64,000 nucleotides of DNA from an uncultured Atopobium sp. (GCA_916715765.1 CAKAPG010000003.1:4125-68124), one strand, 5' to 3'; shown: positions 1,675-42,701, counted from the first letter of the stretch. Program-made: numbers and translations. Notes: generated by a model from the letters alone, not told the origin.

Positions 1675-2127
1675 TTACTCAGCAGTGGGATTGTCGGCGG
1701 GGGAGACGTGCATGTTGCCTTCGTTGCGGGCGATGTCCGCGAGCGTCTTGCTGTCCAGGAAACTGGAGGTCATGCGGCCAAGGTCTCGCCAGACATTGAT
1801 GGTGGTGCAAGACTCCATCTGGGGGCAGAGTGTGGTGTTTGTGCAGCTCAGACAGCTGGCAGGCGCAAGATTGCCTTCGGCTGCGCGAAGAATCTCGCCC
1901 AGCGTGTAGTCCTCGGGCTTGCGCGTGAGGCGATAACCGCCGCCCTTTCCGCGCAGACTCTCGACGTATCCAGCCTTGTGCATCAGGGCAATGACCTGCT
2001 CAAGGTACTTGCGCGAGATGTTCTGGCGCTCGGAAACGTCGCCCAGCGAGACCCAGCCCTCGTGAACGGCCAGGTCAGCCATTGCGCGAAGCGCGTACAT
2101 TCCCTTTGTAGAGAACATTCCGGCCAC
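1675..2127 (-). CDS. Rrf2 family transcriptional regulator (IscR/CymR-like)
   Basis: FSTKGMYALRAM, SRKYLEQV, SLRGKGGGYRL and a Cys cluster CLSC...C...C; start probably GTG 2127 or ATG 2118, just after the sufU stop. Confidence 0.9.
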   Translation of the reverse strand: MAGMFSTKGMYALRAMADLAVHEGWVSLGDVSERQNISRKYLEQVIALMHKAGYVESLRGKGGGYRLTRKPEDYTLGEILRAAEGNLAPASCLSCTNTTLCPQMESCTTINVWRDLGRMTSSFLDSKTLADIARNEGNMHVSPADNPTAE

Positions 2128-15167: not shown

Positions 15168-15413
15168 GAAAGCTCCAAGTTCTTCTCGCCCTGTGAGAGG
15201 GCTCATGTGTATCAATTTCAGTCTAGCGTAAAAGTGTGACGGTAAGTTATTTATTCCTCGTGAATCTCCACTAAGTTTAGATTGAGAGGATTCGACTAAA
15301 CGTTGGAGAGTACAATGGTTTATCTATGAGCAAGAACGCGCCGTCTACGCGTTTTTGCCGTCTTGAAGGAGCTTTCCGATTTGGCACAGGGAAGCAAAGA
15401 CGAAAGGATAAAA

Positions 15414-38918: not shown

Positions 38919-39476
38919 GTGGCTGCAAAGACCTCGCAGCCTGCTGGCAATGCTGACAAAACTGTGCTTACGCATGTAGAGAACACGCTCGACCCCATCA
39001 TTTTCCCTGATTCTCGCGTGTTGCTTTTGGGATCAATGCCAAGTCCCAAGTCTCGAGAAATCGGCTTTTACTTTGGCAACCCTCAGAATAGATTCTGGCG
39101 CGTAGTTGCTGCGCTCTATGGCGAGAAACCCCTCAAGTCCATACCTGAAAAGATTGACTTCTGTAAAAGACATCATCTTGCCCTTTGTGATGTGCTTAAG
39201 GCTTGTGATATTAAGGGCGCAAGCGACGCTTCTATTGCAAATCCGGTTCCGCACAACATTGGTGCTCTTATTCAAGATTCATCAATCTGTGCCATTTTTA
39301 CGCTTGGTGGGACGGCAACAAAATTTTATAAGCGCCACACTGAGCAACAAACTGGTATTTCTGCACGTCAACTGCCCTCTACAAGTCCTGCTAATGCACG
39401 TATGTCAGTTGATGATTTAGCGGAAGAATTTTCCATTATCAAAAAATTTACCAATTGTGAGTTGACAATATCCTAG
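38919..39476 (+). CDS. DNA-deoxyinosine (hypoxanthine) glycosylase, UDG superfamily
   Basis: LLGSMPSPKS, PQNRFW, GASDASI, LPSTSPANA. Confidence 0.88.
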   Translation: MAAKTSQPAGNADKTVLTHVENTLDPIIFPDSRVLLLGSMPSPKSREIGFYFGNPQNRFWRVVAALYGEKPLKSIPEKIDFCKRHHLALCDVLKACDIKGASDASIANPVPHNIGALIQDSSICAIFTLGGTATKFYKRHTEQQTGISARQLPSTSPANARMSVDDLAEEFSIIKKFTNCELTIS

Positions 39477-39489
39477 TTGCGGCTAGGAT
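39462..39489 (+). promoter_or_regulatory. Sigma70-type promoter of the cysteine ABC operon
   Basis: TTGACA (39462-39467), 16-nt spacer, TAGGAT (39484-39489); start site would fall at or near ATG 39497. Confidence 0.6.
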
Positions 39490-39496
39490 TATACGC

Positions 39497-39583
39497 ATGC
39501 GAATTATGGCTACGACATACACTGCACTTTGTGCATGCACCGCGATGTGTCTGGTGCCCGGGTCACATACGACCAGGGTGTAA
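39497..39583 (+). CDS. Putative leader peptide MRIMATTYTALCACTAMCLVPGSHTTRV
   Basis: 28 codons with 3 Cys and 3 Met, no SD, upstream of a cysteine-type ABC importer, with alternative pairings downstream. Confidence 0.65.
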   Translation: MRIMATTYTALCACTAMCLVPGSHTTRV

Positions 39584-39680
39584 TTGTCGCTGAGCAAAAT
39601 TTTCCTGGTATAGACTCGGGCGTAAAGCTATTTTGTAACTCTTGTGTGAGTATTCACACATCCCGAGAGGATTTATTCGC

Positions 39681-40334
39681 ATGGACTGGAGCTTCATAGG
39701 GGAACACCTCCCGCTGTATGCAGAAGCTGCAAAAATAACGCTTACTATCTCTTTCTTTGGAGTTATCTTCTCGCTTATCGTTGGTTTGATAAGTGCTCAG
39801 ATTTCGCTGACAAAAATTCCTGTTTTGAGTCAGCTTAATGCCGTTTATGTTGAGCTTTCCAGAGGAACTCCCCTGCTTATTCAGCTGTTTCTTATCTACT
39901 TTGGACTGACTAAAGTTGGTCTCAAAATGGATGCAGAGGTAGCTGCTGTTGTGGGTTTAACGTTTCTTGGTGGCTCCTATATGGCAGAAGTGTTTCGCGC
40001 AGGCTTTGAATCAGTTGCAGCCATTCAGTTTGAATCTGCACAGGTTTTGGGCCTCTCAAAGGTTCAAGCACTCCAGCATGTAATTCTTCCACAGGCACTT
40101 TCTGTAGCAATTCCAGGCCTTGTTGCTAACGTCATTTTCTTGATTAAGGAATCTTCCGTTGTTTCCGGTATTGCCCTTGCAGATTTGATGTATGTAACCA
40201 AAGACATTATTGGCATGCAATACGACACTACAGAAGCGCTCTTTATGCTGGTAGTTGCCTATGTGATTATCCTTGTTCCTATTTCTTTGTTTGGCAGCTG
40301 GCTGGAGAGGAGGCTTGACTATGCCCGTCGATAA
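39681..40334 (+). CDS. Amino acid ABC permease (cysteine-type)
   Basis: SRGTPLLIQL, YMAEVFRAG; ATG after GAGAGGA. Confidence 0.92.
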   Translation: MDWSFIGEHLPLYAEAAKITLTISFFGVIFSLIVGLISAQISLTKIPVLSQLNAVYVELSRGTPLLIQLFLIYFGLTKVGLKMDAEVAAVVGLTFLGGSYMAEVFRAGFESVAAIQFESAQVLGLSKVQALQHVILPQALSVAIPGLVANVIFLIKESSVVSGIALADLMYVTKDIIGMQYDTTEALFMLVVAYVIILVPISLFGSWLERRLDYARR

Positions 40335-40998
40335 CATTTTGCTGCAGGAAGGAGTGATAACGCGCCTTCTTGGAGGTCTCGCAACAACGGTGCATATTGG
40401 CCTTATCTCCGTGGCGCTTTCTATTCCTCTTGGTGTTCTCGTTGGACTTTTTATGACATCCAACAACAAGGTTGTTCGCACAATTCTTCGTGTTTACCTT
40501 GAGATTGTTCGTGTTATGCCTCAGCTAGTGCTGCTCTTTGTGGTGTTTTTTGGTACTTCTGAATGGTTTGATGTCAACTTTGATGGTATTGAAGCTTCAA
40601 TTGTGGTCTTTACCTTCTGGGGAGCAGCTGAGCTTGGAGACCTGGTACGAGGGTCATTAGAGTCAATTCCAGCATCTCAGTATGACGGTGCGTTTGTACT
40701 TGGCCTTTCTCGCCAGCAAACGTTCTTTAAGGTCATCCTGCCCCAGGCCTTTAGGCGTCTTTTGCCCCCAGCCATCAATCTGATTACGCGCATGATTAAG
40801 ACAACGGCGCTTTGTAATTTGATTAGTGTGGTTGAGCTGCTCAGGGTTGGTAGCCAGATTGCTGATTTTTATCGCTTCAAGTTCCCAACCGACGGAGCAC
40901 TTTGGATCTATGGAGCTATTTTCTTCCTGTATTTTGCCGCCTGCTTCCCACTTTCGTATCTTTCACGCAGGCTTGAGAGGAGCGCCTCACATGAGTAA
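40321..40998 (+). CDS. Amino acid ABC permease (second subunit)
   Basis: [22 protein letters not shown]. Confidence 0.92.
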
Positions 40999-41746
40999 CA
41001 CCGTTTTAGCAGTTAAGGACCTCACTAAGGTATATCCCTCAAGCGAGAAACCCGTGCTTGATAAGATCTCGCTCTCCATCAATAAAGGTGAGGTAGTTGT
41101 GGTGTTGGGACCTTCCGGTTGCGGTAAGTCTACGCTACTTCGCGCTATTGTTGGCTTGGAAGACATCCAAGGGGGAGAGGTACTTCTCCACAATCAGGTA
41201 ATTTCTGGTCAGAAGAGGGAAAGCGCTGCAACAGGCATTGGAATGGTTTTTCAAAGCTATGATCTGTTCCCCAACATGACGGTTTTGAAAAACGTAACTC
41301 TGGCTCCTCTGGTAGTGCAGAAGCGCTCAGAGGATGAGGTTTTGGCACAGGCAGAAGAGCTGCTTCGTCGAGTAGGACTGTGGGAGAAGAAAGACGCTTA
41401 TCCATCAGCACTTTCTGGTGGTCAAAAGCAGCGCGTGGCAATTGTTCGTGCTTTGATGACTAACCCTGAAGTTCTTTTGCTGGACGAGATTACTGCAGCT
41501 CTTGACCCTGAGATGGTTCATGAGGTTTTGCAGGTAGTTATGGAGCTAGCAGAGCAGGGAATGACCATGCTGGTGGTAACTCACGAGATGCGCTTTGCTC
41601 AAGCAGTTGCTGATCGAGTCATCTTGATTGATCAGGGACACATCGTAGAAGAGTCGTCCGATGCACAAGAGTTTTTCTCGGCACCTAAAACAGAAAGGGC
41701 GCAAGAGTTTTTGCGTACCTTTGAGTTTGAACGTGTGCATAAGTAA
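40991..41746 (+). CDS. Amino acid ABC transporter ATP-binding protein
   Basis: [28 protein letters not shown]. Confidence 0.93.
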
Positions 41747-41804
41747 ACAACATGTTTTTGCACGTAGATGATGTAGTAATTGATACAACTTGTTAGGATT
41801 TGAA

Positions 41805-42701
41805 ATGAACTTCTTTGAAAATACTTCCACTTCTCTTTCTCGCCGTGCTTTCCTTGGTGCAAGCGCACTTTCTGCTGCAGCTCTTCTGGCAGCTTGCAAG
41901 AAAAAGGATTCTGACGGAGCTCAGGGTGGATCTTCTGATACAGACTCAAAGTTTAGAACCCTTGATGACATCAAGAAGGCAGGCACGGTAAATATCGGTG
42001 TCTTCAGCGATAAAGCTCCTTTTGGTTACGTTGATGCAAACGGTAATTACGCTGGTTACGACATTGTTTTTGCAGAGCGCCTTGCAAAGGATATGGGCGT
42101 CAAGATCAACTACATTGCCACTGACGGACAGAACCGCGTACCTTTCTTGCAGTCCAATAAGGCAGATATTATGCTGGCAAACTTTACGGTAACCGATGAC
42201 CGTAAAGAGAAGGTTGATTTCTCTCTGCCATACATGAAGATTAAGCTGGGTGTTGTTTCTCCATCCTCTGCGCCAATCACAGACGTTTCTCAGCTTGACG
42301 GCAAGAAGCTTATTGTTTCTAAGGGAACCACAGCTGAGGTCTGGTTTGCTAAGAATGCACCTAAGGTTGAGCTGGTCAAATTTGACAGCTATGCTGATGC
42401 GTATAACGCGCTGCTCGACGGCCGCGGCGATGCTTTCTCAACCGATAATACCGAGGTACTTGCGTGGATCAAGTCTAACCCTGGCTTTGTTGTTGGTATT
42501 GATGACCTGGGCGACTCCGATACTATTGCTGCTGCGGTTCACAAGGGCAACTCCTCGGTGTTGGAGTTTATCAACAACGAGATTACCGGCCCTCTTGCAG
42601 AGGAGAACTTCTTCCACAAGGATTATGAAGAGACCCTTGCTCCAATTTACGGCGACGAGGTAGATCCAAACAACATTGTCGTCGAGGGCGGCAAGATCTA
42701 A
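41805..42701 (+). CDS. Cysteine-type (CjaA-like) ABC substrate-binding lipoprotein
   Basis: SRRAFLG plus lipobox LAAC; IGVFSDKAPFGYVD, ANFTVT, PYMK, TDNTE. Confidence 0.85.
   Translation: MNFFENTSTSLSRRAFLGASALSAAALLAACKKKDSDGAQGGSSDTDSKFRTLDDIKKAGTVNIGVFSDKAPFGYVDANGNYAGYDIVFAERLAKDMGVKINYIATDGQNRVPFLQSNKADIMLANFTVTDDRKEKVDFSLPYMKIKLGVVSPSSAPITDVSQLDGKKLIVSKGTTAEVWFAKNAPKVELVKFDSYADAYNALLDGRGDAFSTDNTEVLAWIKSNPGFVVGIDDLGDSDTIAAAVHKGNSSVLEFINNEITGPLAEENFFHKDYEETLAPIYGDEVDPNNIVVEGGKI

Follow-up and report, generated by a model that had tools for sequence, protein, structure and literature searches.

Leader-peptide transcription attenuation is classically represented by trpL, hisL and thrL. The ilvB-II uORF offers a further comparison of this classical type, going by the accessible part of its description (PMC10272879). 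In mycobacteria, leaderless upstream open reading frames (uORFs) with Cys codons control access to the Shine-Dalgarno (SD) sequence, as the available sections on Ms5788A set out (Canestrari et al., 10.1101/834739), and a Cys-type motif, uORFC-8-2, precedes cysS according to the accessible excerpt of PMC8632094. Seliverstov et al. (2005) predicted terminator-less Cys leaders in Mycobacterium, Propionibacterium and Bifidobacterium; the available part of their report names no Coriobacteriia and gives neither a conserved hairpin for the set nor a conserved structure for methionine operons (PMC1262725).

Here we analyse a leader ahead of a cysteine importer operon in an uncultured Atopobium sp., within a window (the whole stretch of DNA under analysis) of 64,000 nt (GCA_916715765.1, CAKAPG010000003.1:4125-68124). 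As far as the accessible description of the Ms5788A-type attenuators goes, the two have in common a Cys uORF, probably leaderless in the window, before cysteine-related genes of an actinobacterium, no intrinsic terminator and a proposed control of the SD. According to the same partial source, however, the mycobacterial sORFs carry consecutive Cys codons in a tract that pairs with the SD region, their stalled ribosome blocks a duplex and their start-null mutant is OFF, whereas the three Cys codons of the window's leader are spaced and show no such pairing, a stall is here predicted to let a stem form, and the Atopobiaceae family differs by a fixed spacing and a Met version. With the leaders of Seliverstov et al., in the available text, the window's leader shares Cys ORFs before cys genes, the lack of a terminator and the suggestion of Rho (PMC1262725). 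It resembles the classical attenuators in its hungry leader codons and in an ON stem that would start just past the stalled ribosome; unlike them, it has no U-tailed terminator, which is also true of 52 of the 54 family members, and the family appears mostly leaderless, often relies on a single sensing codon and senses Cys or Met.

Sequence comparison supports the element well as a sensor, and we regard it as a real variant of ribosome-mediated attenuation. A family of such ribosome-read switches in the Atopobiaceae is apparently undescribed: we found no account of it in the literature searched, beyond which subscription papers could hold such an element. The main texts of Weinberg 2017 and Brewer 2021 leave it unmentioned (the Weinberg supplement could hold such a motif), and the accessible part of Korolev 2016, which analysed A. 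parvulum and O. uli, has no locus-level entry. Rfam gave no match at the leader locus, no relevant one at E<=5 in five member loci and none at gathering score in ten Met-type loci. Elsewhere in the window, at 15330-15408, lies an Rfam aspS RNA motif (RF02930, 81 bits).

The leader at the cysteine importer locus

The downstream operon (39681..42701, plus strand) encodes a polar amino-acid ABC importer of the cysteine type, composed of two permeases, an ATPase and a binding protein. The latter best matches PDB 1XT8 (E 4e-79) and 2YJP (E 1e-71), both of which we take to be cysteine receptors, with the next match at E 4e-39. No cysK was found in any of 66 genomes of the window's genus, against 191 of 205 other genomes of the family, and no metY was found in the sampled genomes of the genus. 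Judged by this gene content, the genus seems unable to make cysteine via CysK.

A sigma70-type promoter, TTGACA-16-TAGGAT (39462..39489, plus strand; 10/12 match), overlaps with its -35 box the last codons of an upstream glycosylase-family gene. The leader ORF that follows (39497..39583, plus strand) has 28 codons, with the translation MRIMATTYTALCACTAMCLVPGSHTTRV and a stop, and is probably leaderless; its ATG at 39497 lies 7 nt past the -10 box and is not preceded by an SD, while another in-frame ATG occupies codon 4. In 21 of 22 tabulated members a TAGGAT -10 box and the leader ATG are 7-8 nt apart, and transcription would start at or beside the AUG. The sole local contig of an RNA run (0.10 share), 39414-39561, spans the promoter and the upstream gene and is uninformative on start and expression. 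Codon 18 (TGT, 39548..39550, plus strand) is the invariant sensing codon, with accessory Cys codons 12 (TGT, 39530) and 14 (TGC, 39536) ahead of it (39530..39538, plus strand). Consecutive Cys codons are present in the g34 cysK members and in L061, and absent here. An ACAU(A/G) motif (39514..39520, plus strand) falls in different reading frames across the family: 21 of 22 leaders have it as ACAU(A/C/G), in one of two frames; the Cys and the Met type both carry it, 13-18 nt past the leader start, and it can pair with the AUGU/UGU of the sensing-codon region.

The dominant fold is a stem, P1 (39556-39621), which alone amounts to -27.3 kcal/mol. Its 5' strand (39556..39579, plus strand) consists of a basal arm (39556-39564) and an inner arm (39572-39578); in the minimum free energy structure GCCCGGGTC at 39556-39564 pairs with GACTCGGGC at 39613-39621, and ACCAGG(G) pairs with CCTGGT. 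This 5' strand can also fold on itself (-12.8 kcal/mol), and within the 3' basal arm (39613..39621, plus strand) CUCGGG can alternatively pair with CCCGAG at 39662-39667. A pyrimidine segment in the 3' strand (39597..39608, plus strand) is paired inside P1 and, once freed, could form a duplex of -8.6 kcal/mol with 39663-39674, covering the SD; L056 and L058 have analogous segments of different sequence at the same place in P1. Exclusive with P1 is a GGC-GUAAA-GCU mini-hairpin (39619..39629, plus strand; -2.7 kcal/mol), followed by a pyrimidine-rich tract; its counterpart appears in 21 of 22 folded members and is not universal in the Met type. Further downstream come a 7-bp hairpin with a 4-nt loop (39643..39660, plus strand) and then the SD GAGAGG (39665-39670) with the start codon of the first permease (ATG 39681; 39665..39683, plus strand). 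With P1 formed, the SD is also weakly paired by 39639-39645.

The first-pass annotation had placed the promoter and the SD-less ATG, the 28-codon ORF with Cys at codons 12, 14 and 18, the arm pairings of P1, and the CCCGAG and SD sequences just where we find them; its hairpin before the SD is present too, with a loop of four nucleotides and not the two it had given. Absent from it were the operator palindrome at the promoter and the Met-sensing branch described below. Taken alone, promoter, fold and Cys count lie near chance level and are weak evidence: the promoter search at the locus found one where shuffled sequence yields 1.5 on average, the fold has a z-score of -1.59, and the probability of at least three Cys in 27 codons is 0.009 at genome coding frequency and 0.057 in random DNA. 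This doubt is removed because the leader, the codon position and the stem are conserved.

Initiation is probably under a control of its own. A perfect palindrome, ATCCTAG-N6-CTAGGAT (39470..39489), covers the promoter spacer and the -10 box and is the sole N6 match in the genome with up to two mismatches allowed; it is probably a repressor operator. Similar palindromes precede importer and cysK orthologues both with and without a leader, and are commoner than the leader itself, many orthologues combining a palindrome and a short UTR with no leader. The binder may be an Rrf2-like regulator. The genome has one clear Rrf2 gene (window 1726-2112, minus strand; G000:C3:5850-6236), which encodes three Cys and adjoins genes resembling Fe-S assembly genes, and whose product best matches IscR and then CymR, both below the cut-off (112/208 and 77/195 bits). 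CymR in Bacillus needs CysK as its partner; the Rrf2 candidate stands in a genus where CysK was not detected.

Conserved leader anatomy, codon switch and spacing

The leader at 39497-39583 belongs, by its sequence features, to a family in which a leader ORF is followed by a GCCCR…YGGGC stem, with 8 nt from the start of the sensing codon to the first G of the stem. Of 271 family genomes, 84 contain the stem pattern and none its reversed control, and the family extends over about 20 Atopobiaceae genera plus one other family, its leader, codon position and stem recurring before three different sulfur-amino-acid genes. The ORF and all three Cys are intact in 25 of 25 distinct sequences from close relatives (57 loci; permease 95-100% identical), which carries little weight. 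More distant congeners (71-74%) retain the leader, Cys12, Cys18 and the stem, as do the importer orthologues of two other genera (L059, L061). Most other importer orthologues have a short UTR, with the exception of L060, whose homologous leader contains one Cys and lacks a stem at the fixed spacing. A codon-blind detector applied to 31 importer leaders below 90% identity returned eight stems, five with Cys at the fixed position; the other three are long-span chance pairings.

Outside the genus, 17 of 18 matches have a leaderless-type ORF entering the stem, and these 17 leaders stand before cysK or O-acetylhomoserine sulfhydrylase (metY); the eighteenth, L140, is a chance match within a coding region. 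In 90 cysK upstream regions 20 stems were detected, ten of them of the family type and all ten with Cys at the position, while the codon-blind search of 65 metY upstream regions gave 34 stems, in 33 of which an ATG starts precisely 8 nt ahead of the stem G. Among the 54 members finally assembled, the codon at this place is TGT in 16/16 leaders of cysK and cysteine importers and ATG in 38/38 metY leaders, 35 of these 38 having been gathered with a Met/Cys filter, which makes 33/34 the unbiased figure; members are kin, and the counts are not independent. The invariant Cys codon is UGU in all 16 and never UGC. That the amino acid switches with the downstream gene is hard to explain without decoding.

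Apart from codon and stem, the members share little in sequence, length or stop position, and the loop ranges freely from about 37 to 127 nt. In 18 of 38 Met leaders the last base of the stop codon is the first base of the stem, so that the movement of two codons decides whether the arm is covered, and several of these have no other internal Met. Of 35 Met leaders, 23 look leaderless and a few appear SD-led. One Met leader family, with the pattern KKKH-YN-LIC-GLFM, crosses genera in leaderless and SD-led forms alike (L366-L431; g41, g32, g56, g53, g39, g59, g29, g26); it keeps more residues than a one-codon sensor needs, which makes an effect of the nascent peptide possible. In 33 distinct arm pairs, basal pairs 1-5, which are the search key, are nearly invariant; basal pair 6 is paired in all 33 (AU 10, GC 10, GU 13), and pairs 7-10 in 24-29. 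Covariation, which the first-pass annotation had named as a check, exceeds all shuffles on a model-fitted alignment of 24 sequences (0.343 vs 0.162) and is slight on one of 12.

A nucleotide search of 201 family genomes reached close congeners only (16/201). The covariance model R1, built from 12 Cys-type members and applied to 26 candidates per genome, would miss most Met-type leaders; over 151 genomes of the order it found no real match outside the family, and four weak matches had neither leader nor stem. An all-GTDB pattern scan gave at least 116 stretches, and among the matches listed the leader-bearing ones are of the Atopobiaceae type, a small number of them in records titled otherwise, and the rest chance-like. 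An order-wide scan for leaders that stop at the stem marked 30 of 241 genomes, with many control matches as well; its 30 loci include three known members and one new one, L456, from another family of the order, with the leader MRNLLATYRMMMP and a stop before a protein resembling the metY query, and the remaining loci have no leader-plus-metY context.

Several observations stand beside this survey. Two of the listed pattern matches, L178 and L212, carry an essentially unchanged g41-type metY leader in records titled Oscillibacter or Oscillospiraceae, more likely mislabelled or mixed bins than transfer. The Met-type loci L416, L423, L426 and L429 have two copies of the stem 3' arm, one closing a short 9-bp hairpin whose loop contains the stop codon, the other distal to it, past a C/U-rich tract. 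In the metY upstream regions of many Atopobiaceae (L368, L370, L376, L388, L389, L397 and L405, for example) the palindrome G(T/A)TATC-N9-GAT(A/T)(A/T)C recurs, probably as the operator of a methionine regulator; it lies upstream of the promoter in some cases and within the transcribed leader past the stem in others. Outside the window, a promoter-like sequence with a leaderless-looking 12-codon Cys ORF (MGYKQCSCACLL and a stop; G000:C6:56350, plus strand) is probably a chance occurrence, and no long ORF lies within 500 nt on the same strand.

Ribosome position and the likely sign of the switch

When the sensing codon occupies the A site, 11 nt separate the first P-site base from the start of P1. 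According to the available part of Bao et al. (2020), the bacterial mRNA channel has room for 11 nt beyond the first P-site base, and hairpins 11-12 nt away inhibit A-site tRNA binding while those at 13 nt do not (PMC7282821). A channel and a spacing both of 11 nt would mean that P1 can fold while a ribosome waits on Cys18, and that this ribosome covers the basal arm one or two steps further on. The accessory Cys codons lie upstream, farther from P1. The first-pass annotation had taken Cys12 and Cys14 as the stall codons; the invariant codon is instead Cys18, at a fixed distance from the stem in 16/16 Cys-type members. Its broader proposals, a probably leaderless Cys leader read by a hungry ribosome, with a stall that forms the stem and turns the operon ON, find comparative support, and for the sign this comes from cysK leaders with an antiterminator.

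In three cysK leaders of one genus (L292, L307 and L327) the last upstream Cys stands at the family spacing from a stem in which the 5' arm of a U-tailed terminator is sequestered, and covering the arm restores a hairpin at the terminator site in two of the three folds. We take the stem to be the ON state because these leaders, with equal spacing, use it as an antiterminator. On comparative grounds we are highly confident of the sensor by itself; given the sensor, P1 is quite probably the ON state, and sensor and sign together are likely. Translation of the leader, the stall and its sign are what we infer from these patterns.

The spacing recalls the pausing stem-loops of dnaX and HIV, which in the accessible text also lie 11-12 nt from the first P-site base, as P1 does at 11; those stem-loops are frameshift signals of specific hairpin shape, whereas the loop of P1 is long and variable and its pausing is only predicted (PMC7282821). 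By this analogy, a stem 11 nt from the P site might hinder entry of the A-site tRNA and latch the ribosome on a single hungry codon, an idea that we consider doubtful. If it were true, the pause-amplifying stem would constitute a portable one-codon sensor, its specificity changed by a three-base swap (UGU or AUG), wired to SD occlusion, intrinsic terminator or Rho according to lineage, and extending to methionine attenuation through one internal AUG two codons before the stop.

The switches probably represent the way in which a widespread family of oral, gut and rumen actinobacteria regulates its supply of sulfur amino acids, including cysteine import in a genus seemingly without the CysK route. 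It shows single-codon sensors and would extend leader-peptide attenuation to methionine, for which the literature searched holds no published leader-peptide attenuator. The fixed 11-nt geometry makes it testable whether a hairpin at the ribosome's mRNA entrance sharpens amino-acid sensing, and ready-made controls exist in natural variants with a different sensing codon, stop position or output.

From the sensor to the output

For the window locus we tentatively propose, at a little less than an even chance, a ribosome-read cysteine attenuator with a translational output. When Cys-tRNA is short, the ribosome would wait at Cys12 and Cys14 and finally at Cys18, where its mRNA channel would end exactly at the start of P1, allowing P1 to fold; the folded stem would hold both the anti-SD segment (39597-39608) and the 3' arm (39613-39621), leaving the permease SD usable (ON). 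When Cys-tRNA is plentiful, the ribosome would enter the 5' strand of P1 and stop inside it, the freed 3' strand would pair over the SD, and the permease would stay untranslated, upon which Rho polarity would silence the operon (OFF). The palindromic operator would control initiation separately.

Occlusion of the SD, a plausible step in terms of modelled folds, is the least certain of these. Once the ORF part is removed from the window RNA, the SD is paired in all 12 lowest folds, either via the interior segment 39597-39608 (-18.6) or via the CUCGGG:CCCGAG helix plus CCU:AGG (-18.3). The latter helix, which the first-pass annotation had proposed, is seen in near-identical relatives only, and three distant congeners have TTTGGAG in its place; two of these three carry a different pyrimidine anti-SD inside the stem, as the window itself does at 39597-39608, and the segments of L056 and L058 score -13.6 (p 0.02) and -10.5 (p 0.07). 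The near-equal folds that pair the SD agree with the occlusion which that annotation had in mind, while the predicted change in access to the ribosome binding site (RBS) does not follow: it amounts to at most about 1 kcal/mol at the window, in an inconsistent direction. RBS opening there costs 7.6-8.6 kcal/mol at all ribosome positions from codon 7; another measure gives 4.9 vs 5.7-5.9, and a third 3.9 vs 3.1, the wrong way. No increase in predicted opening appears in L058 or L061. Over the 54 members, mean SD opening is 3.3 (ON) vs 3.2 (OFF), higher by at least 1 in 11 members and lower in 20, which indicates no general SD switch. The freed strand beat all 12 shuffles in three of the 54, and loop-to-SD pairing reached p<=0.05 in seven. 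The 30 nt upstream of the stem show no unusual pairing with the SD region in the window (-4.0 kcal/mol, p 0.98), and complementarity of that region to the SD is found at p<0.05 in 0/22 members. An excess of GCC(C/T) before the SD of cysK members (7/11 vs 11/76; duplex p 0.01) is largely due to one genus, and we do not treat it as independent evidence. In short, testing the members revealed neither general SD occlusion nor general intrinsic termination nor a universal alternative helix. No intrinsic terminator was found in the window, and U-tailed terminator-like hairpins overlapping the arm occur in 2/54 members, both of them weak. The conserved unit is the sensor, with an output that may vary between lineages. 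Once the ribosome has gone, P1 (-27 kcal/mol) should form again, so that an irreversible co-transcriptional decision fits better than steady SD occlusion.

A possible alternative, to which we give a smaller though real share of belief, keeps the same sensor and sign and makes premature transcription termination the output, most likely by Rho. After run-through and release of the ribosome, the unfolded 3' strand together with a G-poor tract would offer a Rho loading site, which P1 would hide, or the ribosome itself would shield, while a ribosome is parked at Cys18. Exclusion speaks for this reading, given that a general SD switch is lacking and U-tailed hairpins are so rare, as does the free variation of loop length and stop position. 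Rho-dependent control was proposed for terminator-less actinobacterial Cys leaders in the accessible part of PMC1262725, and in M. tuberculosis the regions on which Rho acts include uORFs (10.1101/2022.06.01.494293). A G-poor tract is found in cysK and g41 members, the 35 nt past the stem holding 10-17 C and 2-9 G in 11 cysK members, whereas the tract of the window is U-rich and not C-rich. In metY leaders the skew of C over G is present with or without the element (C 11.5/G 7.3 vs 10.5/7.2; p 0.31) and hence not specific to it, and for cysK such a comparison would be unfair, as the control regions often include upstream coding DNA. Rho is encoded in the window's genome and in 143 of 151 family genomes, but this near-universal presence does not discriminate.

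We judge it unlikely that the sign is inverse. On that reading P1 would be the OFF state formed after the ribosome departs, and a stall at Cys18 would switch the operon ON by weakening or capping the base of the stem, along the lines of the mycobacterial model. No other fold is nearly as stable as P1, which is what the RNA adopts when no ribosome is present, and the strict spacing could mean contact; the 11-nt channel, however, as given in the available part of PMC7282821, would put P1 outside a ribosome at Cys18, P1 keeps -21.9 kcal/mol even with two basal pairs removed, and the accessory upstream Cys codons could not reach it. With the 5' arm covered, predicted RBS opening fell by at least 1 in 17 of 35 Met members and rose in five, and a weak U-tailed hairpin of L421 (-5.3) forms with P1 and is lost once the arm is covered. 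Against these folds stand the equal spacing that serves an antiterminator in L292, L307 and L327 and the terminator of L456, whose probability goes from 0.76 to 0.94 on covering of the arm, a small shift in the ON direction. We find it scarcely credible that the operator alone controls the operon, with the ORF and stem serving mRNA stability or a trans-acting peptide: the palindrome is more widespread than the leader, many orthologues combine it with a short UTR and have no leader, and the KKKH-YN-LIC-GLFM leaders keep residues beyond the needs of a sensor, but the fixed 8-nt spacing, its persistence in leaders that have so little else in common, and the change between Cys and Met according to the downstream gene would go unexplained.

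The translational attenuator with P1 as its ON state remains the reading we put forward for the window. Separately, upstream regions of cysK in two genera (L292, L307 and L327 in g59; L286, L294, L301 and L303 in g34) contain a second cysteine attenuator, of the classical type, with SD-led, Cys-rich leaders (e.g. LKKTTCACCICTQAARLCA and a stop, or one beginning MRAASSIMCCQMCCHNAWLSP) followed by U-tailed terminators.
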